Source: an uncultured Sphingomonadales bacterium (GTDB lineage: Bacteria; Pseudomonadota; Alphaproteobacteria; Sphingomonadales; Govanellaceae). Taken from it: a DNA stretch of 64,000 bases. Numbering within the stretch: position 1 is the stretch's first letter; each line of letters starts with the position of its first letter. The notes under the pieces were generated by a model. It was not told where the DNA came from and made no database searches. It was given only the letters and a program-made list of their open reading frames with translations. The DNA lies in contig CAZDSS010000002.1 of NCBI GenBank assembly GCA_964508185.1, forward strand, positions 6,674 through 70,673, given 5' to 3'. Below are positions 5,504 to 22,301 of the stretch, piece by piece. Both the position numbers and the translations under genes were made by a program.

Positions 5504-5577
5504 GTGGTTTCCCTTCCCAAGAATTGCTTCGATACCCCGTGCGGGGATTGCACCTTGACGGCGCTACGCATTTTTGT

Positions 5578-5620
5578 ACTTGTCTGGACAAATTTTCATG
5601 TAATGTACGAACTGTCAAGC
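5578..5620 (-). promoter_or_regulatory. Putative promoter plus operator for the TBDR/MFS/FAD-oxidase operon (operator copy 1, TTGTCTGGACAA at 5580-5591)
   Basis: Read on the minus strand: TTGACA (5618-5613), a 17-nt spacer containing TG, AAATTT, then the palindrome TTGTCCAGACAA. A 43-nt block is 34/43 identical to 29217-29259. Confidence 0.6.
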
Positions 5621-5646
5621 AGCCAAGCATCAAAGGGGAGAAAACG

Positions 5647-6327: not shown

Positions 6328-6359
6328 TGGCTTCACCGCGGCGGATGGCGAAGCGCGAC

Positions 6360-6387
6360 TTGAAATTTGTCTGGACAACCTTATAAG
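6360..6387 (+). promoter_or_regulatory. Putative sigma70-like promoter with embedded operator copy 2 (TTGTCTGGACAA at 6367-6378)
   Basis: TTGAAA (6360-6365), a 16-nt spacer, then TATAAG (6382-6387). The palindrome lies inside the spacer, directly upstream of the CitE-like gene. Confidence 0.55.
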
Positions 6388-6407
6388 CTGTGACCGGGAG
6401 TGAGGAA

Positions 6408-7244
6408 GTGAGCAGAGTGGTATCCTTCGCCAGCATGTTGTTCGTGCCCGGCAGCCGGCCGGAACGCTTCGCCAAGGCGCTGGCGAGCGGCGCCGACATC
6501 GTCTGCATCGACCTTGAGGACGCGGTGCCCGCGGCCGACAAGGCGGCGGCGCGGGCGGCGGCCCTTGAGGCCATTGCCATCATCGACGGACGCGAACGGC
6601 TGGCGCTGCGCATCAACGGCGTCACCACCCGCGCGGGCCTCGAGGATCTGGTGGCGCTCGCCGATGCGGCCGTACCCCCTGCCCTTCTGTTCGTGCCCAA
6701 GGTGGAAAGCAGCGCCGAGATCGCCGTCATCCGCGGCGCTCTGGGCGACAAGGCGCCGGGCATCGTGCCGCTCATCGAAAGCGTCGCAGGCATGGATGCG
6801 ATTCGCGACATCGCCCGGGCGCCGGGTGTCGCCGCCATGATGTTCGGCGGCGGCGACTTTGCGGGCGAACTTGGCGTCGAACTCACCTGGGACGCGCTTG
6901 CGACGGCGCGCGGGCTTTTCGTCATGGCCTGCGCGGGGGCCTGCATTCCGGCGATCGACGTTCCCTATCTCGCCCTCGACGACGCGGAAGGGCTGCTGGC
7001 CGAATGCAGGGCCGTGAAGCGCCTCGGGTTCACCGCCAAGGCGGCGATCCATCCGGCGCAGGTTGCCGCCATCAACGAGACATTTCGTCCCACCGCCGCC
7101 GAGATCGCCGAAGCGCGCGAGGCGGAAGCCGCCTTCATCGCGGCGAACGGTGCGGCGGTCAGATTCAAGGGCCGCATGCTCGAAGCACCGATCATGCGCC
7201 GCTATCAGAGGATTCTAGCAATGGAGAAGATTCACAATGCGTGA
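6408..7244 (+). CDS. HpcH/HpaI aldolase / citrate lyase beta (CitE)-like acyl-CoA lyase. Candidate citramalyl- or malyl-CoA lyase.
   Basis: N-terminus SMLFVPGSRPERFAKALASGADIVCIDLEDAV is typical of CitE-like lyases. I chose the GTG at 6408 (GGGAGTGAGGAA upstream); in-frame GTGs at 6390 and 6417 are alternatives. Confidence 0.85.
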   Translation: MSRVVSFASMLFVPGSRPERFAKALASGADIVCIDLEDAVPAADKAAARAAALEAIAIIDGRERLALRINGVTTRAGLEDLVALADAAVPPALLFVPKVESSAEIAVIRGALGDKAPGIVPLIESVAGMDAIRDIARAPGVAAMMFGGGDFAGELGVELTWDALATARGLFVMACAGACIPAIDVPYLALDDAEGLLAECRAVKRLGFTAKAAIHPAQVAAINETFRPTAAEIAEAREAEAAFIAANGAAVRFKGRMLEAPIMRRYQRILAMEKIHNA

Positions 7245-7746
7245 CGGCGTGATCGAAGTCGAACCCGGACGGTATCGCGAAACCTTCGGGCGTTATTTCG
7301 AGGACTTTGTGGTCGGTCACATCTACGAGCACCGACCCGGCCGGACTATCACGGACACGGACAATGTCTGGTTCACCTTGCTGACCATGAACACCCATCC
7401 GGCCCATTTCGACTATGAATTCGCGAAGAAGACCGAATTCAAGAAGCCGCTGGTCTGCTCGCCCTTCACGGTCGCCCTCATGGTCGGAATGAGCGTCTCC
7501 GACATCAGCCAGAAGGCGGTCGCGAATCTCGGCTGGGACAATATCCGTCTCACCCACCCGCTGTTCCCGGGCGACACCCTTTATGCGGAAAGCGAAGTGA
7601 TCGACAAGCGTGAATCGAGCTCGCGCCCGCAGCAGGGCATCGTCACCGTGAAGACCACGGGCAAGAACCAGCACGGCGACATCGTCTGCACCTTCAACCG
7701 CACCATGCTGATCTGGAAGCGCGGCTTCGGTCCCATGGACGACTAA
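7237..7746 (+). CDS. MaoC-like (R)-specific enoyl-CoA hydratase. Candidate itaconyl- or mesaconyl-CoA hydratase.
   Basis: 169-aa hot-dog fold protein. The sequence context RTITDTDNVWFTLLTMNTHPAHFD is typical of the MaoC dehydratase family. It overlaps the CitE-like gene by 8 nt. Confidence 0.85.
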   Translation: MRDGVIEVEPGRYRETFGRYFEDFVVGHIYEHRPGRTITDTDNVWFTLLTMNTHPAHFDYEFAKKTEFKKPLVCSPFTVALMVGMSVSDISQKAVANLGWDNIRLTHPLFPGDTLYAESEVIDKRESSSRPQQGIVTVKTTGKNQHGDIVCTFNRTMLIWKRGFGPMDD

Positions 7747-7758
7747 GGACCGCCTGAA

Positions 7759-8928
7759 ATGAGTGAAAAAGTCATACGCAGCATCGACCCCGACGAGGAG
7801 GCAGCGCTGCTCGATTCCATCGACAAATGGATCGAGCGCGAGGTCCGGCCCGTGGTCATGCATCACGACCACAACGACATCTGGCCCGCCCATCTCGTGG
7901 AGCAGATGAAGGAAATGGGCCTCTTCGGCGCCACCATTTCCCAGGAATACGGCGGCCTCGGCCTGCCGGCGACGACCTACGCCAAGATCATCTCGCGCAT
8001 CTCGTCCTACTGGATGGCGCTCACCGGCATCGTCAATTCCCACCTCATCATGGCGGCGGCGGTCGAGCGCTTCGGCACGCCCGAACAGAAGGAGGAATGG
8101 CTGCCCAGGTTCGCAAGCGGCGAGATCCGCGGCGGCCTCGCGCTCACCGAGCCTGACGCCGGCACCGACCTCCAGGGGATCCGCACCACGGCGGTGCGCG
8201 ACGGTGACGATTACGTCATCAACGGCACCAAGACCTGGATCACCAACGGCATCGAAGGGAGCTGCTTCGCCCTTCTCGTCAAGACCGATCCCAATGCCGA
8301 GCCGCGCTACAAGGGCATGAGCTTCTTCATCGCCCCCAAGGGCCCCGGCTTCACCGTGGGCAAGAAGCTCGAGAAGCTCGGATACAAGGCAATCGACAGC
8401 GCCGAGCTCGTCTTCGACAACTACCGCGTGCCGGCCAAGAACCTGATCGGCGGCGTCGAGGGCCAGGGCTTCTTCCAGGCGACCGGCGGTCTCGAGCTCG
8501 GCCGCATCAACGTCGCCGCCCGCGGCGTCGGCCTTGCCGAAGGGGCGCTGCGGCTTGCGACCGAATATGCCCAGATCCGCAAGACCATGGGCAAGCCCAT
8601 CTGCGAGCATCAGGCGATCCAGCTCAAGCTCGGCGAGATGGTGACCCGGGCGCGCGCCGCGCGGCTTCTCGTCATGGATGCGGCCAGGGCCTATGACCGC
8701 GGCGAACGCTGCGACATGGAAGCGGGGATGGCCAAGTTCTTCGCCTCCGAGGCGGCGGTGCGCAATTCGGAAGAAGCCATGCGCATCTTCGGCGGCTACA
8801 GCTATTCCAAGGAATACGAGATCGAGCGCTTCTACCGCGACGCGCTTCTGATGTGCATCGGCGAAGGCACCAACGAGATGCAGCGCATCATCATCGCCAA
8901 GCAGTGGGTCAAAAGGAATCCGGTGTGA
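7759..8928 (+). CDS. Acyl-CoA dehydrogenase
   Basis: 389 aa. ACAD motifs GLALTEPDAGTDL and FGGYSYSKEYEIERFYRDA...IGEGTNEMQR. Confidence 0.92.
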   Translation: MSEKVIRSIDPDEEAALLDSIDKWIEREVRPVVMHHDHNDIWPAHLVEQMKEMGLFGATISQEYGGLGLPATTYAKIISRISSYWMALTGIVNSHLIMAAAVERFGTPEQKEEWLPRFASGEIRGGLALTEPDAGTDLQGIRTTAVRDGDDYVINGTKTWITNGIEGSCFALLVKTDPNAEPRYKGMSFFIAPKGPGFTVGKKLEKLGYKAIDSAELVFDNYRVPAKNLIGGVEGQGFFQATGGLELGRINVAARGVGLAEGALRLATEYAQIRKTMGKPICEHQAIQLKLGEMVTRARAARLLVMDAARAYDRGERCDMEAGMAKFFASEAAVRNSEEAMRIFGGYSYSKEYEIERFYRDALLMCIGEGTNEMQRIIIAKQWVKRNPV

Positions 8929-10118
8929 GCAGCAATCTTCCCCTCACGGGCTTCCGCGTCCTGTCGGCGGAGCAGTATGGCGCCGCGCCCTATGGCACCA
9001 TGTTCCTCGCCCAGCTCGGCGCGGAGGTCATCAAGATCGAGCAGCCGGGTGCGGGCGACACCGCGCGCGCGGTGGGGCCGTTCTTCCTCCGCGACAACGA
9101 AAGCCTGTTCTTCCAGACCTTCAACCTCAACAAGCGGTCGATCACCCTCGACCTCAACAGCGCCGAGGGCAAGGAGATCCTGCACCGCCTGGCGCGCGAC
9201 GCCCATGCCCTGGTCAACAATCTGCGCGGCGACCTGCCGGAGCGCATGGGCCTTACCTACAAGCACATGCAGGAGACGAACCCGGCCCTCGTCTGCGCCC
9301 ATCTTTCGGCCTATGGCCGCGATACGGAGCGGGCCAAATGGCCGGGCTACGACTATCTCATGCAGGCGGAAGCGGGCTTCCTGTGGATGACCGGCGAGCC
9401 CGACGGGCCGCCCACCCGCTTCGGTCTGTCCATGGTGGATTTCATGACCGGCACCACGATGGCCATCGGCCTGCTCGCCGCCATGATGGACGCCCAGCGC
9501 AGCGGCAAGGGCCGCGACGTGGACGTGGACCTTCTCTCCACCGCGCTCCATCAGACGAGCTATCCCGCCATGTGGTATCTGAATACGGGCCACAAGGTGG
9601 AGCGCGTCTCCCGCTCCGCCCATCCGTCCGTGGTGCCGAGCCAGATGTTCCGCACCGCCGACGGCTGGATCTTCGTCATGGCGCAGCTTCCCAAATTCTG
9701 GAAGCTTCTGGTGGAGCGCATCGGCCGTCCCGAGCTTGCGGACGATCCGCGCTTCAGGACGCCTGCGGACCGGCTTCAGAACCGCGACGTCCTGATCCCC
9801 ATCCTCGAGGACGTCTTCATGACGCAGACGACGGCCCACTGGCTCGATCTCCTGGCCGGGGACATGCCGGTCGCGCCCGTCTACAAGCTGGATGAGGCGC
9901 TGGACAATCCCTACATGGCCCGGGTCGGCATGCTGGACAAGGCGCCCCATCCCGACCGCGAGGACATGCGGGTGCTCGCCAACCCCATCCGCATCGACGG
10001 CAAGCGCCTGCCCAACCGGGCGGCCCCCCTGCTCGGCATCGATACGGACGACGTTCTGCGTGAAGCGGGCTACAGCGCCGACGACATCGCGGCCTTCCGC
10101 GCCAAGGGTGTGATCTGA
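8925..10118 (+). CDS. Family III (CaiB/BaiF) CoA-transferase
   Basis: The GTG at 8925 overlaps the ACAD stop (GTGA). PLTGFRVLSAEQYGAAPYGTMFLAQLGAEVIKIEQP is the typical family III N-terminus. Confidence 0.88.
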   Translation: MSSNLPLTGFRVLSAEQYGAAPYGTMFLAQLGAEVIKIEQPGAGDTARAVGPFFLRDNESLFFQTFNLNKRSITLDLNSAEGKEILHRLARDAHALVNNLRGDLPERMGLTYKHMQETNPALVCAHLSAYGRDTERAKWPGYDYLMQAEAGFLWMTGEPDGPPTRFGLSMVDFMTGTTMAIGLLAAMMDAQRSGKGRDVDVDLLSTALHQTSYPAMWYLNTGHKVERVSRSAHPSVVPSQMFRTADGWIFVMAQLPKFWKLLVERIGRPELADDPRFRTPADRLQNRDVLIPILEDVFMTQTTAHWLDLLAGDMPVAPVYKLDEALDNPYMARVGMLDKAPHPDREDMRVLANPIRIDGKRLPNRAAPLLGIDTDDVLREAGYSADDIAAFRAKGVI

Positions 10119-10122
10119 GACC

Positions 10123-11214
10123 ATGGCGAAGCTTGCCGGAATCAAGGTCATCGACCTGTCGCAGTTCCTGCCGGGGCCGATGCTCACCCTCATGATGGCG
10201 GACCAGGGGGCAGACGTCATCAAGATCGAACCGCCTGCGGGCGACCCCGCGCGCGGGCTGGAACCCTATGAAGCGGGCCAGTCCATCTGGTTCCGCAATC
10301 TCAACCGGGGCAAGCGCAGCATCGCGCTCGACCTCAAGTCGGAAGCGGGAAAAGAGAAGCTCTGGGAGCTGATCGCCGACGCCGACGTCTTCGTCGAAGG
10401 CTTCCGCCCGGGCGTCATGGCGCGGCTCGGCTTTTCCTACGAGGCGGTCGCGGCGCGCAATCCGCGCATCGTCTATTGCTCCGTCTCCGCCTTCGGGCAG
10501 GAGGGGGAACTGTCGCACCATCCGGCTCACGACCTTGCGGTGCAGGCCTTGTCCGGCTTCCTGTCCGTCAATGACGGGCGCGACGGGCGGCCCGTGGTGC
10601 CGGGGGTGCCCTCCGCCGACATGGCGGCGGGGCTGACCGCGCTCTCGGCCGTGCTCATGGCATTGATCGGCCGCGAGCGCACGGGACGGGGCGACCATAT
10701 CGACGCCGCCATGTTCGACAGCCTGATCCCCTGGTGCGCCCATATCGTGGGGACGGCGATTCATGGCGGCGAGCCGCCGCGCTCCCACAGCCAGCGCTCC
10801 CTGGGCGGCGCCGCCTTCTACAACGTCTATGAAACCGCCGATGGAAAGTTCGTGGTGCTGGGCGGGCGCGAGACCAAGTTCGTCGCGAACCTCCTCAACG
10901 CCCTCGGCCGTCCGGACCTCATCCCGCTCGGCAGCGAGCCGCCGGGACCGGCGCAGGCGCCCCTCGTCCGCTATCTCGAGGAAACCTTCCGCGCCCGCAC
11001 GCGCGACGAATGGGTCGCCTGGTTCGCCGACAAGGACGTGGCCTTCGCCCCCGTCCTCGACTTCCGCGAGGCCTTGTCCGCGCCCCACGTCGCCGAACGG
11101 GGCATCGTCGTCGAGGCCGACGGCGCCCACCATATCGCGCCGGCCATCCGCTTCCGCTCCGAACCGGACTGGAAGCCGCGGCCGGCGCCGGAGCTCGACG
11201 CCGATGGCCGCTGA
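10123..11214 (+). CDS. Family III (CaiB/BaiF) CoA-transferase, second tandem copy
   Basis: 363 aa. LAGIKVIDLSQFLPGPMLTLMMADQGADVIKIEPPAGDP is the typical N-terminus. Confidence 0.88.
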   Translation: MAKLAGIKVIDLSQFLPGPMLTLMMADQGADVIKIEPPAGDPARGLEPYEAGQSIWFRNLNRGKRSIALDLKSEAGKEKLWELIADADVFVEGFRPGVMARLGFSYEAVAARNPRIVYCSVSAFGQEGELSHHPAHDLAVQALSGFLSVNDGRDGRPVVPGVPSADMAAGLTALSAVLMALIGRERTGRGDHIDAAMFDSLIPWCAHIVGTAIHGGEPPRSHSQRSLGGAAFYNVYETADGKFVVLGGRETKFVANLLNALGRPDLIPLGSEPPGPAQAPLVRYLEETFRARTRDEWVAWFADKDVAFAPVLDFREALSAPHVAERGIVVEADGAHHIAPAIRFRSEPDWKPRPAPELDADGR

Positions 11215-11215
11215 C

Positions 11216-11977
11216 CTAGCCGTCCACCTCCATATGCATGGAGTAGGCGAAGCGGTCGCCGGGATGGTGGCTGGCGGAGAATTCCAGCACGCGCCCGCTC
11301 GCGTCGTAATAGCAGCGGAGAATGCGCAGGCAGGGGCTGCGGCGCGGAATGCCGAGCTCCGCCGCCACCGCCGTGCTCGCCGGCACCGCCTGGATGTCCT
11401 GGGTCACCCGCACGATCTTCGTGCCCGACAGCCGTTCCAGTTGCTGGAAGATGGTGTCCTGGTTGGGCTTGATGGCCTTGGCCGCCGCGAGAAGGTCGGG
11501 ATGGATGTAGGTGTCGGTGAGCGCGATGGGCTCCGCCTGGCCGGTGCGCGTGCGCAGGCCGCGGAAATGATACCAGCGGCGCTTGTCCGTGATCCCCGCA
11601 TGGACGGCAAGGGACTTCGGCAGCGGCACCTCGCCCTGGGCCGTGAACAGATAGCGGGTGTCCCGCGCGTATTGCAGGATTTCGCCCACGTTCGACAGCG
11701 GCTGATAGAGCGCCCCGCCGCGGGCGGACGCCGGCTGGATCACCGTGCCCGAGCCCTGGCGTCGCTGGATGAGCCCTTCCGCCTGCAGGGAGCGCAGCGC
11801 CTCGCGCACGGTGAAGCGGCTCACCTCGAAACGGGCGCAAAGCTCGCTTTCGGTCGGGAACGGATTGGGGTGAAGATAGTCGCCGCGAAGGATCTCCGCG
11901 CGCAGTTCGTCCGCAAGTTCCTGATAACGGGGCTTGCGCGCCCGCTTCACGGCTACCGCCTGACTGGAACCCGGCAA
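11216..11977 (-). CDS. GntR-family transcriptional regulator, HutC subfamily (winged HTH plus UTRA domain)
   Basis: 253 aa. N-terminal GntR wHTH (LPTESELCARFEVSRFTVREALRSLQAEGLIQRRQGSGT). The C-terminal domain has the length and pattern of a UTRA effector domain. Confidence 0.88.
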   Translation of the reverse strand: MPGSSQAVAVKRARKPRYQELADELRAEILRGDYLHPNPFPTESELCARFEVSRFTVREALRSLQAEGLIQRRQGSGTVIQPASARGGALYQPLSNVGEILQYARDTRYLFTAQGEVPLPKSLAVHAGITDKRRWYHFRGLRTRTGQAEPIALTDTYIHPDLLAAAKAIKPNQDTIFQQLERLSGTKIVRVTQDIQAVPASTAVAAELGIPRRSPCLRILRCYYDASGRVLEFSASHHPGDRFAYSMHMEVDG

Positions 11978-12020
11978 GGCAATACTCCTTTTCTCAAATT
12001 GGCTCCCGGGAGACTGCCCG

Positions 12021-13268
12021 GTGATTGACGCGAATTATAGCTTAACAGAACGGCTTGCCCAGCATTGTCTGACGCCCGTTTCAGAAGTTATCCGGACAAA
12101 ATCCCGGCTTCATCTTCTGGACTGGCTGGGCTGCGTCATGGGTGCCCGGCGGGGCGAGGTCGCCCATGCGCTGAAGCATATGGATGATCTCTCGCCTGCA
12201 GGCAAGGCGGCATGGCTCGGCAACGTGCTGGAGATGGACGACGTCCATCGCACGGCGATCCTCCATCCCGGCCCGGTGGTGTGGCCGACGGTGCTCGCCG
12301 CCGCCCGCGGCCACGGGATGGACGAGGTGCTGGACGCCGCCGTCCGGGGTTACGAGGCGATGATTTCGATCGGCGCGACCTTCGACGCCCGTCATTACGC
12401 CCACTGGCACAACACGGCGACCGCGGGCCTGTTCGGGGCGGCTGCAGCCGCCGCCGCCTTGCAGGGCGCCGACCGGGCGCAGCTCGTCGCCGCCCTCGGC
12501 CTTGCGGGATCGGTGACCGGCGGCTTCTGGCAGATGCGGCACGAGCCGGTGACCGCCAAGCAATGGCACATCGCCCATGCCATGCGCACGGGGCTGGAGA
12601 CCGCGGCCTTCGCCCTCAGGGGGATCACGGGCCCCCGCTTCATCCTGGAAGGGCCGCAGGGGCTCTATGCCGGAACCTGCGACGCCGCGAAGCCCATGCT
12701 GCTGGCGGACGGGTGGCGCATCAGCGAAGTGAGCTTCAAGCCCTGGGGCGCCTGCCGCCACGCGCATCCCGCGATCGATGCGGCCCTCGAGCTCAAGAAG
12801 CAGGGCGCGCTTCAGGGCCCGGTGACCGTCGCCACCTACCGCGACGCGCTCACCTTCTGCGACCGGCCGGAGCCGCGCAGCGTGATCGAGGCCAAGTTCT
12901 CCCTCCAGCACGCGGTGGCGGTCGTCATGGAGCGGGGCGTGCCGGAGCTCGCCGATTTCGAGCCCGAGGCCATCGCCGCCCTTGCGGATGCCCGCAAGCT
13001 CGTGACGGTGGAGGAGGATCCCGCGCTCACCGCCGCCTACCCTGCCCATTTCGGCGCGCGGGTGACAAGCGCTGGCGCAAGCGTCACCCTGGCGGATACG
13101 CTGGGCGATCCCGAGCGGCCGCTCGATGAAGCGGGCGTCGTCGCCAAGGCGCGGGCGCTCATGGATTGGGGCGGGCTCGGTGGGCGGGCTGCGGACGAGG
13201 CGATCGCCGCCGCCCTTCACGGCGACCGCCCCGACGCTATCGTGGATATTCTGGAGCGCTGGCTATGA
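12021..13268 (+). CDS. MmgE/PrpD family protein
   Basis: 415 aa with a GTG start. Family-typical segments LDWLGCVMGA, HPGPVVWPT and KPWGACRHAHPAIDA. Confidence 0.85.
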   Translation: MIDANYSLTERLAQHCLTPVSEVIRTKSRLHLLDWLGCVMGARRGEVAHALKHMDDLSPAGKAAWLGNVLEMDDVHRTAILHPGPVVWPTVLAAARGHGMDEVLDAAVRGYEAMISIGATFDARHYAHWHNTATAGLFGAAAAAAALQGADRAQLVAALGLAGSVTGGFWQMRHEPVTAKQWHIAHAMRTGLETAAFALRGITGPRFILEGPQGLYAGTCDAAKPMLLADGWRISEVSFKPWGACRHAHPAIDAALELKKQGALQGPVTVATYRDALTFCDRPEPRSVIEAKFSLQHAVAVVMERGVPELADFEPEAIAALADARKLVTVEEDPALTAAYPAHFGARVTSAGASVTLADTLGDPERPLDEAGVVAKARALMDWGGLGGRAADEAIAAALHGDRPDAIVDILERWL

Positions 13269-14572
13269 CCGCGACGGCAAAAGTGGTTGAATTCGCGCGG
13301 GCGCAGCATCGGCTGCCCGCGGACGTGCGGGCTGCGGCCGTGGACCTTCTCGGCGATACGCTCGCGGTCGGCGCCGCGGGCTCGACCGCCCCGGGGGCGG
13401 ACGGCGTGCTGCGCGCGGCGGAAGGCTGGGGCGGGGGTGATGACGCCCGCGTCATCGCCCGGGGCGTCCGCCTTCCCGCAAGCGGCGCCGCCTTCGTGAA
13501 CGCCTTCCAGATCCATTGCCTCGAATGGGATTCGGTCCATGAACCCGCGGTGGTCCATGCCCTGTCCACCGTGACGGCGGCCCTCGGCGCCGCCATCGAC
13601 CGGCTCGGCGGCTGCGATCCGGAGGAAGCGGTCACGGCCCTGGCCGTCGGCGTCGATATCGCAAGCGGCCTCGGCCTTGCCGCCGACACGCCCCTCCGCT
13701 TCTTCCGCCCGGCGACCGCCGGTTGCATCGGCGCCGCGGCGGCCGTCGCCCGCATCATGAAGATCGAGCGCATGGAGGACGTGCTGGGCCTCGCCTATTC
13801 CCAGTGCGCCGGAACCATGCAGGCCCATGTGGAAGGATCGATCGCCCTGCCCCTGCAGATCGCGAACGCCGCGCGGGCGGCGATCACCGCGGCGGACCTG
13901 GTGGCGAATGGCCTCACCGGCCCCCATGACGTGTTCGAGGGGCCGTTCGGCTATTTCACCCTGTTCGATAACGGCGACTTCACGCGGTATACGGACCGGC
14001 TCGGCAGCGTCTGGCGCATCGCGGAGGTGAGCGTCAAGCCGTTCCCCTCGGGCCGGGCGAGCCACGGGGTGCTTGCGACCCTCTCCCGCCTTATCCGGGA
14101 CAAGGAATTCGCCGCCGACGACGTGCTGCAGATCGAAGCCTTCGTGCCGCCGCTCATCCAGCGGCTGGTGGGCCGCCCCATGAAGGCGGACATGACGCCC
14201 GCCTATGCGCGGCTCTGCCTGCCGTTCCTCGTCGCCCTCATGCTGCGCGACGGGCGCATCGACCCCAGGCGCTTCACGCCCGAGGCGTTCGCGGATCCGG
14301 AGCTTGCCGCGCTGGCGTCCCGGCTCGTCATCACCCTCGACGGCAATCCCGACCTCAACGCCCTGTCGCCGCAGCGGCTGGTGATAACCCTCAGCAACGG
14401 CCGCGTGCTGCGGCACCACATCCCGAAGACCGCGGGCCATCCCGAGGCGCCGCTCGATGCGGGCGAGACCGCGGCCAAACGGAATCTCGCGCGGGAGCTT
14501 GCGCTTTCCGTGCCGGATCCGCGACTGTTCGAAGATCCCCTGTCCTACTACACATGTCCGGAGGCGAAATGA
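13265..14572 (+). CDS. MmgE/PrpD family protein, second tandem copy
   Basis: The ATG at 13265 overlaps the upstream stop (ATGA). Family-typical segments LLGDTLAVGAAGS and VKPFPSGRASHGV. Confidence 0.85.
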   Translation: MTATAKVVEFARAQHRLPADVRAAAVDLLGDTLAVGAAGSTAPGADGVLRAAEGWGGGDDARVIARGVRLPASGAAFVNAFQIHCLEWDSVHEPAVVHALSTVTAALGAAIDRLGGCDPEEAVTALAVGVDIASGLGLAADTPLRFFRPATAGCIGAAAAVARIMKIERMEDVLGLAYSQCAGTMQAHVEGSIALPLQIANAARAAITAADLVANGLTGPHDVFEGPFGYFTLFDNGDFTRYTDRLGSVWRIAEVSVKPFPSGRASHGVLATLSRLIRDKEFAADDVLQIEAFVPPLIQRLVGRPMKADMTPAYARLCLPFLVALMLRDGRIDPRRFTPEAFADPELAALASRLVITLDGNPDLNALSPQRLVITLSNGRVLRHHIPKTAGHPEAPLDAGETAAKRNLARELALSVPDPRLFEDPLSYYTCPEAK

Positions 14573-15942
14573 CCTTCCCCACCTATTTCGAGGCCCTCGA
14601 CATCCGTCAGCTGCTGGAGGAATACCCCGTCGGCGACGCCTTCGTCCGCCGCTACACCTCCATGAGCCGCGACGAGCTTTTTGACCTCCAGAACAAGCGC
14701 TTTCTCAAGCTCATGAAGCGGGGCTGGGAAATTCCCTTCTACCAGCGGCTGTGGGGCGACAAGGGGATCGAGCCCGGCGACATCCGAAGCCTCGAGGACA
14801 TCACCAAGCTTCCGGTCTACGACAAGTCGGACCTCATGAAGTCCATCGCCGAATTCCCGCCCTATGGCGATTTCGCGGGGATTCCGGATTCGAACGACCG
14901 CCCGCCGGTGATCTTTCATACGACCTCCGGCACCACTGGCCGCCCGCAGGCGCTTCTCTTCGGCCCCAAGGGGCGCGAGGTGACCAATCTTCTCGTCGGC
15001 CGCATGTATCGCTGGCAGGGGCTGAAGCCGTCGGACGTGGTGCATTCGGTCTATGGCCACGGCATGATCAACGGCGGCCACTATATCCGCGAGGCCGTGA
15101 CCCATTTCACCAATTCCCTGTTCCTCTCCGCCGGCACCGGGATCGAGACCCGCTCGGTCAACCAGGTGCGGCTCATGGCCGACTTCAACGTGACGGTGAT
15201 CGTCGGCTTCATCGACTATATCCGCAAGCTCGCCCAGGTGGCGAAGGACGAGGGGCTGCTCGACAAGATCAATATCCGCATGATCTGCGGCCATCTCGGG
15301 ACCGAGGACCGGGCGGCGGTGGAAGCGGCCTGGGGCGGCGCCAGGGCCTATGACTGGTACGGCGTGGGCGACACCGGCACGATCGCCGGCGAAGGGCCCG
15401 AGCGCGACGGCCTCTATGTGTGGGAGGACGCCCAGTATCTCGAAATCCTCGACATCGACACCGGCAGGCCGGTGGCGCCGGGCGAGACGGGCGACATGGT
15501 GGTGACCTGCCTCTTCAAGGACGACGTCGCCCCCTGCATCCGCTTCAACACCCACGACGTGACCCACGAGCTTCTGGGCCGGAACCAGACGGGCATGGTG
15601 TTCAAGCGCATCGCGGGCTTCAAGGGCCGCAGCGACAACATGGTGAAGCTCCGCGGCATCAACGTGTTCCCCCATGCGATCGGCGCGCTCATCGAGAACC
15701 GGCCGGATCTCACCGGCGAATATGTCTGCCGCGTGTCCCGCGACGCGTCGGGCCGCGACGAGATGCTGGTGATCCTCGAAAGCCGCGGCGGCACGGACGA
15801 AGCGGCGCTTGCGGCCCTCCTGCGTCAGGGCCTCGGCGTCGAGGTGGACGTGAAGCTCGTCGGCCCCGGCGAGACCGCGGCGGACACCCAGATCGAGGTG
15901 CGGCAGAAGCCCATCCGTCTCATCGACGAGCGCAAGCTATGA
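14569..15942 (+). CDS. Phenylacetate-CoA ligase (PaaK)/F390-synthetase-like adenylate-forming enzyme
   Basis: AMP-binding loop HTTSGTTGRPQ. PaaK-like N-terminus with DIRSLEDITKLPVYDKSDL. The ATG at 14569 (GGAGG upstream) overlaps the upstream stop; the ATG at 14554 is an alternative. Confidence 0.82.
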   Translation: MTFPTYFEALDIRQLLEEYPVGDAFVRRYTSMSRDELFDLQNKRFLKLMKRGWEIPFYQRLWGDKGIEPGDIRSLEDITKLPVYDKSDLMKSIAEFPPYGDFAGIPDSNDRPPVIFHTTSGTTGRPQALLFGPKGREVTNLLVGRMYRWQGLKPSDVVHSVYGHGMINGGHYIREAVTHFTNSLFLSAGTGIETRSVNQVRLMADFNVTVIVGFIDYIRKLAQVAKDEGLLDKINIRMICGHLGTEDRAAVEAAWGGARAYDWYGVGDTGTIAGEGPERDGLYVWEDAQYLEILDIDTGRPVAPGETGDMVVTCLFKDDVAPCIRFNTHDVTHELLGRNQTGMVFKRIAGFKGRSDNMVKLRGINVFPHAIGALIENRPDLTGEYVCRVSRDASGRDEMLVILESRGGTDEAALAALLRQGLGVEVDVKLVGPGETAADTQIEVRQKPIRLIDERKL

Positions 15943-17243
15943 GCGACTGGCGCCACGCGGACATCGCGACGCTCCACGCAGCCTATGGGCAAGGCGCGGT
16001 CACGGCGCGCGCGGTGACCGCCCATTTCCTCGACCGCATCCGCCGCCACAATCCCCAGCTTCACGCCTTCATCGAGGTTGACGAAGCGGGGGCGCTGGAC
16101 GCGGCCGCGGAATCCGACCGGCGCATCCGCGAGGGCGCGTTGCGTCCGCTCGAAGGAATCCCTGTCGCCGTCAAGTCCAACATTGCGGTCAGGGGCCTTT
16201 CCTGGAACGCGGGCATGGAGCTTCGCCGCCACATCATCGCGGCGGAAGACGCGGAAACCGTCGCACGCCTTCGTCATGCCGGCGCCGTCATCCTCGGCAC
16301 ACTCAACATGCATGAGGCGGCGCTCGGCGCCACCACCGCCAATCCCTGGTTCGGACACGCCATGAACCCGCACCGCCCCGGCCACACGCCCGGCGGATCG
16401 TCGGGCGGCAGCGGCGCCGCAGTGGCGGCGGGGCTTTGCGTCGCGGCCCTCGGCACCGACACCCTCGGCTCCGTGCGCATTCCCGCGGCCTATAACGGCG
16501 TCTACGGCATCAAGCCGACGCAGGGTGCGGTATCCGACGACGGCCTCGTGCCCCTCAGCACCTGGCTCGACTGCATCGGCCCCCTGGCGCGCACGCTCGA
16601 CGATCTCGACCGCATGCTGCGCGTGCTGACGGACGTGAAGCCCGCCGCCGGCCCGCGCCGCCTTCTGGTGCTGGGGCAGCTGGAAGAAGGGTGCGAGCCC
16701 GAAATCGTCGCTGCCTACGAACGCGCGCTCGCCGCGCTGCCGCTCAAGCCGGAAGCCCTCGCCCTCCCCCACAGCCTGGCCGAAATCCGCTTTGCGGGCT
16801 TCGTGGAGACGGCGCGTGAGCTTACCCGGCATCTCGGGTCCAGCATCGAGACGGACGCCGACCGCATCTCGCGCGAGCTCCATTTCCTGCTCGGCGTCGC
16901 ACGCAAGAAGGAAAGCGAATATCCGGCGCTTTACGCCGTCCTGCAGGCGACGCGGGACGCAATCCGCGCCGCCATCGGCCAGGACGGCATCCTGCTGACG
17001 CCCACGACGCCGCAGGCGGCATTCGTCCATTGCGACCGCCCGCCGGCAACACAGGCGAGCTTCACGGCCCTTGCCAACATCGCGGGGCTTCCCGCCATCA
17101 GCATCCCGGCGGGCGTCAATGGCGATGGCCTGCCCGTCGCCGTGCAGGCCATCGGCTGGCCCGGAAGCGAAGCGGCGCTCGTCGAGCTCGCGCGACAACT
17201 TGAAACGGAACTGGGTGGTTCCATAATTCCCGCCCTCGCCTAG
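15939..17243 (+). CDS. Amidase-signature (AS) family amidase
   Basis: 434 aa. AS motif GGSSGGSGAAVAAGLCVAALGTDTLGSVRIPAAYNG. ATGA overlap with the upstream gene. Confidence 0.9.
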   Translation: MSDWRHADIATLHAAYGQGAVTARAVTAHFLDRIRRHNPQLHAFIEVDEAGALDAAAESDRRIREGALRPLEGIPVAVKSNIAVRGLSWNAGMELRRHIIAAEDAETVARLRHAGAVILGTLNMHEAALGATTANPWFGHAMNPHRPGHTPGGSSGGSGAAVAAGLCVAALGTDTLGSVRIPAAYNGVYGIKPTQGAVSDDGLVPLSTWLDCIGPLARTLDDLDRMLRVLTDVKPAAGPRRLLVLGQLEEGCEPEIVAAYERALAALPLKPEALALPHSLAEIRFAGFVETARELTRHLGSSIETDADRISRELHFLLGVARKKESEYPALYAVLQATRDAIRAAIGQDGILLTPTTPQAAFVHCDRPPATQASFTALANIAGLPAISIPAGVNGDGLPVAVQAIGWPGSEAALVELARQLETELGGSIIPALA

Positions 17244-17259
17244 ATCAAGGAGAAGTCCC

Positions 17260-17565
17260 ATGCGGATCATCGTCCTCTTCAATCTCAAGCCCGGCGCCGA
17301 CCGGAGCGCCTATGAAAACTGGGCGCGCAGCACGGACATTCCGGGTGTTCGCGCCCTCGGCTCCATCAAGGACTTCCAGGTCTACCGCACCACCGGGCTG
17401 CTCGGCGCGGAAGACAGGCCGCCCTATGAATATATCGAGGTGATCGACGTCGCCGACATGGAGGCTTTCGGCCGCGACGTCTCGAGCGACGCCGTGCAGA
17501 AGGTCGCCGCCGAGTTCCGCAACTTCGCCGACAATCCCCTGTTCATCACCACGGAGGCCCTGTGA
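17260..17565 (+). CDS. Small dimeric alpha/beta-barrel protein (EthD/REDY-HapK-like)
   Basis: 101 aa. The size and the MRIIVLFNLKPG...YEYIEV pattern fit the Dabb/EthD-like fold. The function call is tentative. Confidence 0.6.
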   Translation: MRIIVLFNLKPGADRSAYENWARSTDIPGVRALGSIKDFQVYRTTGLLGAEDRPPYEYIEVIDVADMEAFGRDVSSDAVQKVAAEFRNFADNPLFITTEAL

Positions 17566-18398
17566 TGCGGCGGTTCGAAGGCAAGACCATCGTCGTCACC
17601 GGCTCCGGCCGCCACAAGGGTCTGGGCCAGGGCATCCTCCAGCGCTTCGCCGACGAGGGCGCCAATTGCGTGGTGTCCGACATCGGCCGCCCCGCCGAAC
17701 ATATGGGCGAAGGCGACATCGGCACCACGACGGAGATGGAGGAAATCGCCGAGGAGCTGCGCCAGCGCGGCGCGAAGGCGATCGCGGTCCCATGCGACGT
17801 GCGCAAGGAAGCGGATTGCGAGGCCCTGGCGCGCAAGGCTAGGGAAGCCTTCGGCTCCCTCGACATCTGGGTCAACAACGCCGGGATCGGCTACATCATG
17901 AAGCCGCTGCTGGAAACCACGGCGAGCGAGTGGGAGGCGGTGATCGGCGTCAATCTCACCGGCGCGTTCTTCGGGACGAAGGCGGCGGCGCGCATCATGA
18001 TCGAACAGGGCCGCGGCGGCCGCATCATCAATATCGCGAGCCAGGCGGCCAAATCCGGCTTCCCGCACATGGCGCCCTATACCAGCTCCAAGCACGGCAT
18101 GGTGGGGCTCACCCGCTCCACCGCCATCGAGCTCGGCCCCCACGGCATCACCGTGAACGCCGTCTGCCCCAATCACGTGACCACGGGGCTCGGCGCCAGG
18201 CAGAACGAATATTTCTCGAAGCTTCTCGGCTTCGACAGCGTCGAGGCCTATCTCGACAACATGAAGCGCAAGAACCCCATGGGCCGCCCGGGCCTTGCGA
18301 GCGACACCGCCGCCGCCTGCGCCTGGCTGGCGTCGGACGACGCCTTCTATGTGACGGGCGAGGCCCTCAATGTTTCCGGCGGAGAGGAAATGCACTGA
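17565..18398 (+). CDS. Short-chain dehydrogenase/reductase (SDR)
   Basis: Cofactor motif TGSGRHKGLGQG, NNAG, and catalytic YTSSKHG. The ATG at 17565 shares one base with the upstream TGA; the in-frame GTG at 17562 is an alternative. Confidence 0.9.
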   Translation: MRRFEGKTIVVTGSGRHKGLGQGILQRFADEGANCVVSDIGRPAEHMGEGDIGTTTEMEEIAEELRQRGAKAIAVPCDVRKEADCEALARKAREAFGSLDIWVNNAGIGYIMKPLLETTASEWEAVIGVNLTGAFFGTKAAARIMIEQGRGGRIINIASQAAKSGFPHMAPYTSSKHGMVGLTRSTAIELGPHGITVNAVCPNHVTTGLGARQNEYFSKLLGFDSVEAYLDNMKRKNPMGRPGLASDTAAACAWLASDDAFYVTGEALNVSGGEEMH

Positions 18399-19264
18399 TG
18401 CAGGAAGAACGGATCGACTGGCCGAACGACGCCAGGATCGCATTGTCGGTCGTGGTCAATGTGGAGGAGGGCTCCGAAATGACGGTCGCCCGCGGCGACC
18501 GCGGCATGGAGCCGGTGGACGAGCTGGGCATCCACATCAAGTCGCCCATCCGCAACTACGGCAATGAATCGAACTATCTCTACGGCATCAAGGCGGGCGC
18601 GCCGCGCATCGTGAAGCTGTTGCGCAACTACGGCATCAAGGCGAGCTGGACGGTCGCGGCCATGAGCCTCGAGAACCATCCGCAGATCGCCGAGGCCATC
18701 GCCGAACTCGGGCACGAGCCCGTGAGCCATGGCTGGCGCTGGATCCACCAGTTCAAGATGAACGAGGAACAGGAGCGGGAATTCATCCGCCGCGCCGTCA
18801 CCTCCATCGAGCGCACGGTGGGGGTCCGCCCCTATGGCTGGCTCAGCCGCTATTTCCACACCGACAACACCCGGCGCTTGCTGATCGAGGAAGGTTTCGA
18901 ATATCACATGGATGACTATTCGGGCGACGTGCCGTTCTGGGACCGCGAGACGGTGCCGGGCAAGCCCATCGTCATCGTGCCCTATCAGCTCGACAGCAAC
19001 GACATGAAGATGTGGACCGACCCGGCGATGACCCCGACCCAGTGGCTGGACTACGCGAAGCGCTGCTTCGACCAGCTCTACCGCGAGGGGCAGGAGGGCA
19101 ATCCGAAGATGATGTCCCTCGGTCTCCATCTCCGCATCATCGGCCGTCCGGGGCGCATCTGGGCCCTTGAGGAGTTCTTCCGGCACGTGACGAGCAAGCC
19201 CGACGTCTGGATCACCACCCGGCGCGAGATCGCCGAACATTTCCGGAAGGTACAGCCTGCATGA
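18398..19264 (+). CDS. Polysaccharide deacetylase / PuuE-like family hydrolase
   Basis: 288 aa. The ATG at 18398 overlaps the SDR stop. RIALSVVVNVEEGSE...YGNESNYLYG...SHGWRW is typical of the divergent NodB-fold deacetylase group. Confidence 0.75.
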   Translation: MQEERIDWPNDARIALSVVVNVEEGSEMTVARGDRGMEPVDELGIHIKSPIRNYGNESNYLYGIKAGAPRIVKLLRNYGIKASWTVAAMSLENHPQIAEAIAELGHEPVSHGWRWIHQFKMNEEQEREFIRRAVTSIERTVGVRPYGWLSRYFHTDNTRRLLIEEGFEYHMDDYSGDVPFWDRETVPGKPIVIVPYQLDSNDMKMWTDPAMTPTQWLDYAKRCFDQLYREGQEGNPKMMSLGLHLRIIGRPGRIWALEEFFRHVTSKPDVWITTRREIAEHFRKVQPA

Positions 19265-20025
19265 GTTTGCGTCTTGAAAGAGACGGCGCCGTCGCCCGTC
19301 TGATCCTGGACCGCGCGGAAAAGCGCAATGCCTTCACCCAGGCCATGTGGGAAGAATTCCCGCGGCTTCTCGCTGACGCCATGAACGATTCCGCCGTCCG
19401 CGTCATGATCCTGCAGTCGGCGGCGCCCGGCATCTTCTCCGCCGGGGCTGATATCGCGGAATTCTCCACCGGCGCCCGCGATCCCCAGTGGCGCGCGCGC
19501 AACCAGGCGGCGATCCGCACGGCGCAGTACGAGCTTGCCCGCGCGCCAAAGCCGGTGATCGCCCTTGTGGACGGCGACTGCGTGGGCGGCGGCTGCGGCC
19601 TCGCGCTTGCCTGCGACATGCGGGTCGCCACCCCGCGCTCCCGCTTCGGCATCACGCCGGCGAAGCTCGGCCTCGTCTATTCGCTCCACGACACCAAGCT
19701 GCTCGTGGATCTCGTGGGGCCGGCCCAGGCCAAGCGCATCCTGTTCACGGCGCAGCTCATCGGCGCCGAGGAAGCGGCGCGCATCGGCATGGTGGAATTC
19801 CTGACCGATGACGCCGAGGCGCAGGCCCAGTCGCTTGCGGAAACCATCGCCCAGTCCTCGCCCCATTCGGTGCGCGAGACCAAGGCCATGGTGCGCCGCA
19901 TCCTCGACGGCCAGGCGGAGGACAACGACGAGACGCGCGCCCTGTTCGATGCGGCCTTCACCGGCCCCGATTTCGAAGAAGGGGTGTCGGCCTTCCTCGA
20001 GAAACGAAAGGCGGTCTTCAAATGA
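19261..20025 (+). CDS. Enoyl-CoA hydratase/isomerase (crotonase) family protein
   Basis: 254 aa. Crotonase motifs FSAGADI and DGDCVGGGCGLALACDMRVA. Confidence 0.9.
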   Translation: MSLRLERDGAVARLILDRAEKRNAFTQAMWEEFPRLLADAMNDSAVRVMILQSAAPGIFSAGADIAEFSTGARDPQWRARNQAAIRTAQYELARAPKPVIALVDGDCVGGGCGLALACDMRVATPRSRFGITPAKLGLVYSLHDTKLLVDLVGPAQAKRILFTAQLIGAEEAARIGMVEFLTDDAEAQAQSLAETIAQSSPHSVRETKAMVRRILDGQAEDNDETRALFDAAFTGPDFEEGVSAFLEKRKAVFK

Positions 20026-20924
20026 AGGGCGGGCTCACCCACGGGCAGATCGTCGGCGGCGTCATCACGACGCCCGATCTCGACGCGGCGATCACGGATT
20101 ACGCGGACAAGCTGCAGCTGACCCTCGTCGAGCGCGGCGCGATCGATGCCGACCTCGCCGCAAGCTGGGGCTGCCCGGCGAGCGCCGGCGCGCGCTTCGC
20201 CGCCCTGCAGCCGAAAAGCGGCGCCCATTGCTTCTTCCGCCTTGTGGAAGCACCCGTCCCCGCGGATTTCCGCCCCACCCGCACCTATGGCTGGGCGGCC
20301 TACGAGATGACCGTGCAGGACGTGACGGGCTGGCCGGAGCGCCTTGCCGGCAGCGGCTTCCGCATCGTGGGGCAGCCCAAGCCGCTCGACGGCCTTCCCT
20401 TCATCGTCGCCATGCAGATGCTGGGGCGCGGCGACGAGATGCTTTACCTCACCGAGATCTTCGGCGATACGCCGGGATCCGAACTGCCGCGCGCCGCATC
20501 CTTGTCCGACCACATCTTCATCGCCGTGCTTGCAAGCCCTGACCGCGAGGCGAGCGTCGCCTGGTATCGCGACCGCCTCAGGCTCGAGCCCGGCGGCAGC
20601 TATACCCTGACCTACACCATGATCAACAACGCCTTCGGCCTGCCGCCCACGCACCGCACCACCCTCACCATGGTGCAGAAGGGCGCGATGCCGATCATGG
20701 AGGTGAACGACTATCCGGCGGAGGCGACGGAGCGGCCCTGCAACCCCGGCATGCTGCCGCCGGGGAATTCGTTGCTCACCCTTGCGGTTGATAGCCTCGG
20801 TGCGCTCGATCTCCCCTTCATCGCGCAGCCCAGGCCGCGTGAAGGCGCGCTTTATGGCGGCCGCCGCGCGGCGACGGTGCGCGGGCCTGCGGGCGAGCTG
20901 GTGGAGCTTCTGGAAATCGCCTGA
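20022..20924 (+). CDS. Two-domain VOC (glyoxalase/dioxygenase)-like protein. Function unknown.
   Basis: 300-aa ORF, ATGA-coupled to the crotonase gene. The two repeated beta-alpha-beta-like halves suggest a VOC fold. No metal ligands are confidently assigned. Confidence 0.5.
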   Translation: MKGGLTHGQIVGGVITTPDLDAAITDYADKLQLTLVERGAIDADLAASWGCPASAGARFAALQPKSGAHCFFRLVEAPVPADFRPTRTYGWAAYEMTVQDVTGWPERLAGSGFRIVGQPKPLDGLPFIVAMQMLGRGDEMLYLTEIFGDTPGSELPRAASLSDHIFIAVLASPDREASVAWYRDRLRLEPGGSYTLTYTMINNAFGLPPTHRTTLTMVQKGAMPIMEVNDYPAEATERPCNPGMLPPGNSLLTLAVDSLGALDLPFIAQPRPREGALYGGRRAATVRGPAGELVELLEIA

Positions 20925-20931
20925 TCAGTTC

Positions 20932-20968
20932 AAAAAAATCCCGCCCCCGCGGAGCAATACGGGGGCGG
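20932..20968 (-). terminator. Intrinsic terminator between convergent genes, canonical for the minus-strand qor transcript
   Basis: A 9-bp GC stem (CCGCCCCCG 20941-20949 / CGGGGGCGG 20960-20968) with a 10-nt loop. On the minus strand it is followed by a U7 tract (A7 at 20932-20938). Confidence 0.7.
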
Positions 20969-20988: not shown

Positions 20989-21963
20989 TCAGGGAAGAAG
21001 AATGCTCGAACCCGTGGTGCGGCGGCCTTCGAGATCCGCATGGGCCCTGGCCGCGTCACGCAAGGCATAGCGCTGGCCGATGGTGACCGAAAGCTTGCCT
21101 GAGCGCAACATGTCCCAGACCCGCGCGGCGCCCGCCGCCCGTTCGCCGGGTTCCGCGTAATAGTGATAGAGCGCCGGGCGCGTATGGAACAATGATCCCT
21201 TGCGCGCGAGCGGTCCCATGTCCACGGGCCCCGTGGGCGCGTCCGCATTGCCGTAGACGACGATGAGGCCGCGCACCCCGCAGCTGTCGATGGAGGCATC
21301 CCACGTCGCCTTGCCGACGCCGTCGAACACCACGCGGACACCGGCGCCGCCGGTGATTTCGCGCACCCGCGCCGCCGTGTCCTCCTCGGTATAGAGAATG
21401 AGGTGATCGGCCCCGGCGGCCCTCGCCGCTTCGGCCTTGGCGGGCGTGCTGACCGTGCCGATGACGACGGCGCCGACGGCCTTCAGCCACTGCAGGAGCA
21501 GAAGCCCGAGCCCCCCCGCCGCCGCATGGACGAGTACGGGTGAGCCCGGTTCCACCTTCGCGCAGCGTTCCACCAGGAACTCCGCCGTGCAGGCCTTGAG
21601 GAAGGCGGCGGCCGCCACTTCGTCCGAAATGTCGTCGGGGATGGGGAACCACAGGAATTCGTCCAGCACCCGCTCGGTCGCGTAGCTCCCGATGTCGGGG
21701 CCGAAGGTCACGACGCGGTCACCGGGCTTGAAGCGGGTGACCCCCTCGCCCACCGCTTCCACGACGCCTGCGGCCTCGACCCCGAGGCCGGTGGGCAGCG
21801 ATACGGGATAGATTCCGCGCCGGTGATAGGTGTCGATGAAATTGACGCCGATCGCGGTGTGGCGGACGCGAACCTCCGTGCCGCGCGGCGCCGGAATGTC
21901 GACCTCCTCGAAGCGGATGACGTCGGGCGAGCCGGTCTCATGGACGCGGGCGACAAGCGCCAT
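20989..21963 (-). CDS. qor: NADPH:quinone oxidoreductase (zinc-independent MDR family)
   Basis: 324 aa. MDR pattern GVNFIDTYHRRGIYP and nucleotide motif AAAGGLGLLLLQW. Confidence 0.85.
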   Translation of the reverse strand: MALVARVHETGSPDVIRFEEVDIPAPRGTEVRVRHTAIGVNFIDTYHRRGIYPVSLPTGLGVEAAGVVEAVGEGVTRFKPGDRVVTFGPDIGSYATERVLDEFLWFPIPDDISDEVAAAAFLKACTAEFLVERCAKVEPGSPVLVHAAAGGLGLLLLQWLKAVGAVVIGTVSTPAKAEAARAAGADHLILYTEEDTAARVREITGGAGVRVVFDGVGKATWDASIDSCGVRGLIVVYGNADAPTGPVDMGPLARKGSLFHTRPALYHYYAEPGERAAGAARVWDMLRSGKLSVTIGQRYALRDAARAHADLEGRRTTGSSILLP

Positions 21964-21974
21964 GTCGCCCTCCG

Positions 21975-22283: not shown

Positions 22284-22301
22284 TCTTGCTCCCCTGTTGT
22301 C

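Follow-up and report, generated by a model that had tools for sequence, protein, structure and literature searches.

Do the genes of a branched-diacid CoA pathway and the amide-processing genes that lie end to end in an uncultured Sphingomonadales bacterium serve a single catabolic route, or do they merely adjoin one another? The locus in question spans positions 6408-20924 of a 64,000-nucleotide stretch of contig CAZDSS010000002.1 (assembly GCA_964508185.1), referred to here as the window, and comprises 14 co-directional enzyme genes on the + strand and one reversed gene for a GntR/HutC-type regulator. It is a real, widely conserved and unstudied 15-gene bacterial cluster with one repressor, and no description of it was found in the literature, including work on cyclic imide hydrolases and half-amidases, on the breakdown of maleimides or hematinic acid and on the regulons of sphingomonads. 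Taken as a whole, the locus is read here, with moderate confidence, as one catabolic unit, effectively a single operon with the HutC-type repressor gene reversed mid-way, forming the core of a regulon marked by the palindrome TTGTCYRGACAA. At 66% G+C, the window yields open reading frame (ORF) lists crowded with spurious frames; the gene set was chosen by third-position GC (GC3), with families assigned from Pfam and NCBIfam, and in this set all the gene families named by the first-pass annotation were recovered. Most gene junctions in the cluster are overlaps of a few bases.

The unity of the cluster is best seen in its inheritance. All 15 genes stand in unchanged order in 19 of 20 loci and, in a larger set, in 54 of 63 evaluable species loci, a synteny far beyond chance. 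In six species there is no regulator gene between the upstream CoA module and the downstream half that opens with the first MmgE/PrpD gene (PrpD1); the distance from the CoA-transferase stop to the PrpD1 start is there -12 to +6 nt, and the halves are translationally coupled. The strongest evidence for a single unit comes from other families, namely three genomes of another alphaproteobacterial family and one of another class, which carry the same approximately 25 genes in shuffled blocks. One block places the genes for the HapK-like protein, the short-chain dehydrogenase (SDR) and the PuuE-like hydrolase directly before lyase, MaoC hydratase, acyl-CoA dehydrogenase (ACAD) and the two CoA-transferases, a second holds both PrpD genes followed by ligase and amidase, and a third joins an isochorismatase-like gene to two further PuuE-like genes. 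These genomes carry the same operator, and HapK homologs from Steroidobacter species suggest that the genome of the other class is Steroidobacteraceae-like. Synteny, direct coupling and the shuffled arrangements together bear out the earlier proposal that the amide-processing genes supply the branched-diacid CoA module and are not mere neighbours of it.

The cluster occurs in about 15% of sampled Sphingomonadaceae-type genomes and in some other Proteobacteria, and a relative of its ligase was found in 391 species genomes. Of 275 genomes sampled from the large sphingomonad family, 42 encode an ortholog of the PuuE-like protein (75-90% identity), with paralogs set apart at 41-48%; species known by name to carry the cluster include Blastomonas natatoria, Sphingobium chungbukense, Sphingomonas cavernae, Erythrobacter cryptus and Pelagerythrobacter marinus. 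Median conservation reaches 83% for the PuuE-like protein, 79% for the ligase and 84% for the ACAD. The window cluster is itself 75-90% identical to the Sphingomonadaceae copies and is absent from the six other genomes of its own family. Because this small family is otherwise without the cluster, lateral acquisition of the whole regulon appears likely.

Control by a common operator, linking the cluster to TonB-dependent receptors (TBDRs), had been proposed in the first-pass annotation, and exact copies of the palindrome indeed stand upstream of both. The first copy, an exact match to TTGTCTGGACAAATTT, lies at 5580-5595 between the genes for TBDR1 and the membrane protein M1; the second lies at 6363-6382, 30 nt upstream of the lyase start; the third at 24796-24815, 71 nt upstream of TBDR2; and the fourth at 29219-29234, upstream of a CN-hydrolase unit. 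The units so preceded are TBDR1-MFS-FAD oxidase (with divergent M1), the lyase operon, TBDR2-YCII-quinone oxidoreductase and CN-hydrolase-S-M-FAD oxidase. Counting close variants, TTGTCTGGACAAATTT gives six matches in place of the 0.05 expected, with sites at 5580, 6363-6382, 24796-24815 and 29219. All four 16-mer sites of the whole assembly (2.9 Mb, 89% complete) fall within the window, and exact copies of the 12-mer core TTGTCYRGACAA number six across the genome, five of them in the window and one on another contig (C10:40743), the sole exact core outside the window's own contig. The same 12-mer stands within 200 bp upstream of the lyase gene in 59 of 62 species loci, and in five complete genomes from five genera the palindrome occurs 3-8 times each, confined to an island of 35-52 kb that surrounds the cluster, as against 0-1 matches for a reversed control pattern.

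The regulator gene (11216-11977, - strand) encodes a GntR helix-turn-helix domain joined to a UTRA domain, and the palindrome is repeated before the operons it is predicted to regulate. GT-n-AC-type palindromes suit HutC-family repressors, and because the operator is confined to the surroundings of the cluster in the five complete genomes, this GntR/HutC-type protein is the likely binder of TTGTCYRGACAA. A copy with one mismatch, TTATCCGGACAA, lies at 12088-12099 inside the 5' end of PrpD1, 67 nt in, upstream of a promoter-like site for the regulator on the minus strand (12061-12034); a site with at most one mismatch recurs at this PrpD1-internal position in 10 of 79 relatives. A sigma-70 promoter scan gave no more sites than shuffled sequence did. 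Opposite the regulator gene runs an ORF on the + strand (11204-12028) that begins 8 nt before the stop of CoA-transferase 2 and ends 5 nt past the PrpD1 start. Since 9 of 15 similar-sized window genes, at 66% GC, have a fully open codon-aligned antisense frame, this ORF is indistinguishable from chance, and a purposeful translated bridge was rejected.

Turning to the enzymes, the CoA module opens with a CitE/HpcH acyl-CoA lyase resembling citramalyl-CoA lyase (6408-7244, Pfam HpcH_HpaI), followed by a MaoC (R)-hydratase of the itaconyl/mesaconyl-CoA-hydratase-like kind (7237-7746, Pfam MC_hydratase and MaoC), an ACAD resembling methylsuccinyl-CoA dehydrogenase (7759-8928, Pfam ACAD domains) and two family III CoA-transferases (8925-10118, its start overlapping the ACAD stop, and 10123-11214; 380 and 369 bits on Pfam CoA_transf_3). 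The first-pass annotation had matched the lyase and the hydratase to activities of the itaconate route. This holds in part: RipC_Ccl and RipB_Ich are indeed their best curated families in NCBIfam, but the scores of 234.8 and 247.5 bits stay below the equivalog cut-offs of 375 and 340. Among solved structures the lyase matches 3qll best, an entry we take to be Yersinia RipC, at 190.7 bits versus 121 for malyl-CoA lyase. The RipB_Ich cut-off was passed in 1 of 401 sampled Pseudomonadota genomes, and the window MaoC protein is 64% identical to the protein that passed it. Compared with small five-gene clusters that match the ich-mcd-mmgE-ict-ccl composition described in PMC12290011, identity reaches 58-69% for the ACAD, 59-63% for MaoC and 52% for CoA-transferase 1, and falls to 35-41% for the lyase and 27% for PrpD. 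A family III CoA-transferase and an ACAD share the operon with hydratase and lyase, as in the itaconate/methylsuccinate clusters. From these family scores and identities, the module very probably handles methylsuccinyl-, mesaconyl- or citramalyl-CoA-type esters, without being a curated equivalog.

The nitrogen-related arm lies in the downstream half and includes an amidase-signature amidase, a candidate half-amidase (15939-17243; Pfam Amidase, 302 bits), a HapK/REDY dimeric alpha-beta-barrel protein of EthD-like fold (17260-17565, Pfam HapK), an SDR with TGxxxG and YxxxK motifs (17562-18398, Pfam adh_short) and a NodB-fold protein (18398-19264) previously taken for a deacetylase. The last of these is a small-molecule ring amidohydrolase to judge by its motifs. 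It is approximately 45% identical to, and of the same length as, the PuuE allantoinases (3cl6), and its NVEEG and SHGWRW align with NYEEG and SHGYRW of 3cl6. The metal-independent pattern (NxEEG; HGxRW) is thus present, with Trp replacing the second metal His, in contrast with the metal triad of HpPgdA (PMC3084791). Identity as a CE4/NodB deacetylase was rejected, as the Asp-His-His triad and catalytic Asp (TFDD, HSxxH) are replaced as in PuuE, and Pfam Polysacc_deac_1 gives only 45.8 bits. Such PuuE-specific metal-free motifs suggest that the enzyme opens a small cyclic amide, imide or ureide and does not trim an N-acyl conjugate. The first-pass annotation had envisaged a larger amide or N-acyl conjugate, and for "larger" the only grounds are the regulon's TonB receptors and periplasmic CN-hydrolases; that part of the proposal is not retained. 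The amidase carries the Lys, GGSSGG (cis-Ser) and Ser motifs of its catalytic triad, and no close characterised relative of it was found. The AlphaFold2 model of the HapK-like protein (pLDDT 91.5) matched HapK (2jdj) and 4-methylmuconolactone methylisomerase in Foldseek at a TM-score of approximately 0.8, a resemblance of predicted fold that hints at ring isomerisation.

Five further genes complete the enzyme set. The MmgE/PrpD paralogs (Pfam) lie at 12021-13268 (PrpD1, with an epimerase/isomerase-like active site) and 13265-14572 (PrpD2, with a divergent one), apart from the ACAD gene. In methylsuccinate isomerase (Msi), whose gene is adjacent to that of the ACAD, the relevant residues are His88, Glu91, His102, Tyr148, His152, Lys202 and Lys266 (PMC12290011). 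Of the seven IDS-epimerase/Msi catalytic positions, PrpD1 retains six, the second-base Tyr among them, and has Asn for the first His; in pairwise alignment, PrpD2 lacks the equivalents of Tyr145, His150 and Lys198. The PaaK-like adenylating acid-CoA ligase (14554-15942) has a TSGTTG motif and is a divergent member of its family by sequence, scoring 167 bits on PaaK TIGR02155 (cut-off 646) in a window without paa genes, with PaaK and 2-hydroxyisobutyryl-CoA synthetase among its matches in the PDB. The protein formerly labelled a crotonase (19261-20025, Pfam ECH_1) has the crotonase fold and lacks both hydratase glutamates: GGGCG and TPAK stand in it and in 74 of 74 orthologs in place of the canonical GGGxE...PE, at positions that are presumably those of the catalytic glutamates of rat enoyl-CoA hydratase. 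It shares 29% identity with E. coli methylmalonyl-CoA decarboxylase (ScpB/YgfG), with Tyr140 aligned and His66 replaced by Ala, and scores 153.5 bits on NF008506 (cut-off 257); it may work in a decarboxylase-like manner, not as a member of the ScpB/YgfG family. The last gene encodes a two-domain VOC protein (20022-20924, weak Pfam Glyoxalase match), whose AlphaFold2 model (pLDDT 93.8) matched two-domain glyoxalase I and PcpA/MhqO-type enzymes at a TM-score of approximately 0.6.

From the gene families, motifs, operator, conservation and co-inheritance described above, we infer a class of substrate and a sequence of chemical steps, which we consider somewhat probable in outline: a lactam, imide or ureide ring would be oxidised, opened and deamidated, and the resulting branched C4/C5 diacid would pass through CoA transfer, dehydrogenation, hydration and lyase cleavage. 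Small nitrogen-containing ring compounds would enter via the TonB receptors and MFS or S/M transporters. The always-linked HapK-SDR-PuuE triad would then act first, with the HapK-like barrel isomerising or tautomerising the ring, the SDR converting a hydroxy-lactam oxidatively into a cyclic imide and the hydrolase of PuuE type opening that ring. The amidase-signature enzyme would free ammonia from the half-amide to give a methyl-branched C4/C5 dicarboxylate, which the two MmgE/PrpD proteins could epimerise or isomerise. Activation of the diacid would fall to the family III CoA-transferases, and that of a carboxylated variant to the ligase. The ACAD would next form an enoyl-CoA of the mesaconyl-C4-CoA type, the MaoC hydratase would convert this to a citramalyl-CoA-type ester, and the CitE-type lyase would release acetyl-CoA and pyruvate or close analogues; for the glutamate-less crotonase and the VOC protein, the probable role is decarboxylation or epimerisation of CoA esters.

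Further members of the regulon, in relatives and on other contigs of the same genome, fit this chemistry. In relatives the operator-linked genes also encode hydrolases, namely two further PuuE-like proteins, one enzyme of the isochorismatase family and a second CN-hydrolase, as well as a LeuC/LeuD-type hydratase, a lyase of the HMG-CoA-lyase family, a third CoA-transferase, a methyltransferase and an aldehyde dehydrogenase. In the genome studied here, two PuuE-like proteins, an isochorismatase-like hydrolase, an HMG-CoA-lyase-like protein, a CoA-transferase and LeuC/LeuD are encoded at 33.7-40.7 kb of contig C1, where no operator copy with up to two mismatches was found. Immediately left of the window (positions 1-6673 of its contig, C2) lie genes for the second CN-hydrolase, the methyltransferase, an aldehyde dehydrogenase and an alpha/beta hydrolase, together with a one-mismatch operator copy at C2:1828. 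With these additional enzymes, the cis and trans, or the R and S, forms of branched diacids may be handled by parallel routes.

Several observations weigh against the proposed route. Lyase and hydratase both fall short of their NCBIfam equivalog cut-offs, and neither PrpD paralog could be placed with the characterised methylsuccinate isomerase, PrpD1 having Asn and PrpD2 missing three positions. The imide substrate is drawn by analogy, since PuuE proper acts on a ureide, allantoin. The structural matches of the HapK-like protein share at most 27% sequence identity and those of the VOC protein at most 17%, and the steps given to ligase, crotonase and VOC protein do not follow from the evidence.

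The alternative that survives best, though still rather unlikely, is that free diacids, namely itaconate, mesaconate, methylsuccinate and citramalate, serve as the physiological substrates, and that the amide and ring enzymes salvage minor derivatives. The closest characterised system does degrade free acids (PMC12290011), and the ACAD and MaoC proteins are highly similar to those of five-gene-type clusters. Yet the PuuE-like protein and the ligase are among the most conserved products of the cluster, on a par with the ACAD; the regulon has three PuuE-like hydrolases and amidases of three superfamilies, and C5 diacids need no TonB receptors.

It may also be supposed that the cluster degrades hydantoins or ureides, with a 5-substituted hydantoin or else a ureide resembling allantoin as the ring opened by the PuuE-like enzyme, and with carbamoyl groups removed by the amidases. 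The resemblance to true allantoinases, with their motifs kept, would suit such a route, as would the best NCBIfam matches of the amidase, which include the AtzE and allophanate-hydrolase families, and the CN-hydrolases of the regulon, which belong to the carbamoylase superfamily. It is nonetheless improbable: the PuuE-like protein scores 252.6 bits on TIGR03212 against an equivalog cut-off of 424.6, no purine-catabolism neighbours (uricase, HIU or OHCU genes) were detected around its gene by Pfam or NCBIfam, and the CoA module and the PrpD pair would be left unexplained.

A more specific form of the lactam/imide route can be put forward as a speculation of low probability, namely that the regulon is dedicated to the breakdown of five-membered, methyl-substituted lactams and imides from tetrapyrrole oxidation. 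Equally speculative examples of its substrates would be methyl-vinyl- or methyl-ethyl-maleimide, hematinic acid and pyrrolinone fragments derived from bilins. Several imidases of PuuE type, together with several amidases, would convert these to alkyl-maleates and alkyl-succinates; the products would go to the PrpD-type isomerases, the LeuCD-type hydratase and two stereo-complementary lyases (CitE-type for S, HMG-CoA-lyase-type for R), while ligase, ACAD and the atypical crotonase would trim the propionate side chain. Its basis is the fit of the enzyme set. A CpcT/CpeT bilin-lyase identity suspected from a CpcT-like motif in the regulon protein c40 was rejected, as the protein has no Pfam match.

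Very unlikely is the division of the locus into two unrelated adjoining pathways, an itaconate/methylsuccinate operon at 6408-11214 and a separate amide-degrading operon at 12021-20924. The reversed regulator gene does divide the halves, and the 44-bp gap between it and PrpD1 has no exact operator, either in the window or in 58 of 58 relatives; against this stand the conserved gene order, the direct coupling of the halves in six species and, in other families, their interleaving, with HapK-SDR-PuuE joined to the lyase module. A lactone route, in which methyl-substituted butenolides or muconolactones from methyl-aromatics would yield methylsuccinyl-CoA, itself a product of the modified 3-oxoadipate pathway, is scarcely tenable: it draws on the likeness of the HapK-like model to 4-methylmuconolactone methylisomerase and of the VOC model to PcpA/MhqO-type ring-cleaving enzymes, but these fold matches share only approximately 14% identity, the regulon conserves several amidases and PuuE-type amidohydrolases, and no cycloisomerase, 3-oxoadipate-type thiolase or enol-lactonase was seen.

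The array is closed by a GC-rich hairpin followed by a T run (20941-20968), a terminator between the convergent VOC and quinone-oxidoreductase genes. To the left of the cluster, on the - strand, lie TBDR1 (3008-5503; Pfam Plug and TonB_dep_Rec barrel), an MFS transporter found again beside the cluster in relatives (1709-2992; Pfam MFS_1) and, as the last gene of this unit, an FAD-linked oxidase of VAO/GlcD type (144-1712; Pfam FAD_binding_4) whose nearest solved structures are D-lactate and 2-hydroxyacid dehydrogenases; the divergent M1 (5647-6327, + strand) is a polytopic membrane protein without a Pfam family, likewise kept beside the cluster in relatives. To the right, again on the - strand, are the TBDR2-YCII-quinone oxidoreductase unit (20989-24729; Pfam assignments, operator upstream) and the CN-hydrolase-S-M-FAD oxidase 2 unit (24913-29057; Pfam CN_hydrolase and FAD_binding_4). 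The two FAD-linked oxidases (144-1712 and 24913-26565) are paralogs, visible as a DNA repeat of 75% identity; each is the end gene of an operator-controlled unit, and their match to known families is confined to the FAD domain and the last 30 residues. A fifth exact operator core, at 40708-40719, has a LysR gene (39752-40684, - strand) on one side and cytochrome-oxidase-like genes (from 41110) on the other, and may tie a second island of composition TBDR-S-M-MFS-MFS-amidohydrolase (31746-39709) to the regulon.

If the proposed reading is true, a large share of Sphingomonadales carry a complete and tightly regulated route that couples ring-amide hydrolysis to a branched C5-diacid CoA pathway so far tied only to itaconate and methylsuccinate. 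It would name a natural source of methylsuccinate- and mesaconate-type intermediates, an open question in PMC12290011, and would give functions to several orphan families, including two new MmgE/PrpD activities, HapK/REDY proteins, the glutamate-less crotonase and the PuuE paralogs. It is tempting to add that, were the tetrapyrrole version to hold, it would stand as the first bacterial pathway described for the recycling of maleimides from pigments. The conserved repressor-operator pair, for its part, would constitute a ready-made biosensor for an inducer search.

Comparison with characterised systems helps to place the cluster. Two candidates were rejected: the homarine (hom) operon has a different enzyme set, and the bile-salt side-chain cluster of Sphingobium sp. 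Chol11, which contains a CoA ligase, a heteromeric ACAD, a Rieske oxygenase and amidases, is without PrpD, PuuE, CitE-type lyase and family III transferases. With PuuE allantoinases (3cl6, 1z7a) the NodB-fold hydrolase shares its length, nearly half its residues, EE for DD and Trp for the second His; unlike them, it lies below the TIGR03212 cut-off, stands outside a purine-catabolism context and belongs to a type with three paralogs in the regulon. With Yersinia RipABC the likeness lies in the hydratase and the lyase, for which RipB_Ich and RipC_Ccl are the top curated families and 3qll the top lyase structure, whereas the CoA-transferases are of family III and not RipA-type, and neither hydratase nor lyase reaches its equivalog cut-off.

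The nitrogen arm finds a parallel in nicotinate catabolism of Aspergillus nidulans, in which the SDR HxnW, the cyclic imidase HxnM and the amidase HxnN take a hydroxy-lactam through imide and half-amide to a diacid (PMC9304392). The succession of SDR, PuuE/PgdA-clade hydrolase and amidase-signature amidase is common to both, although the Aspergillus ring is six-membered and yields 2-hydroxyglutarate without a CoA module, and its imidase is of the metal-binding PgdA/imidase type, whereas the window hydrolase is of the metal-free PuuE type.

Closest of all is the itaconate/methylsuccinate cluster of Pseudomonas aeruginosa (PA0878-PA0883) and Cupriavidus necator, with Ict, Ich, Ccl, Mcd, Msi and a VOC protein (Gonner et al., PMC12290011). 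The likeness noted in the first-pass annotation is sustained: family III CoA-transferase, hydratase and CitE-type lyase are likewise accompanied by ACAD, MmgE/PrpD and VOC proteins, and the expected products are again acetyl-CoA and pyruvate. Here, in contrast, CoA-transferase and PrpD are both duplicated, the PrpD genes lie apart from the ACAD gene, and lyase and PrpD are those most distant from the small clusters of that composition. Ligase, amidase, HapK, SDR, PuuE-like hydrolase, atypical crotonase, VOC protein and regulator are obligatorily linked in addition, and the operator is common to TonB receptors and periplasmic amidases.

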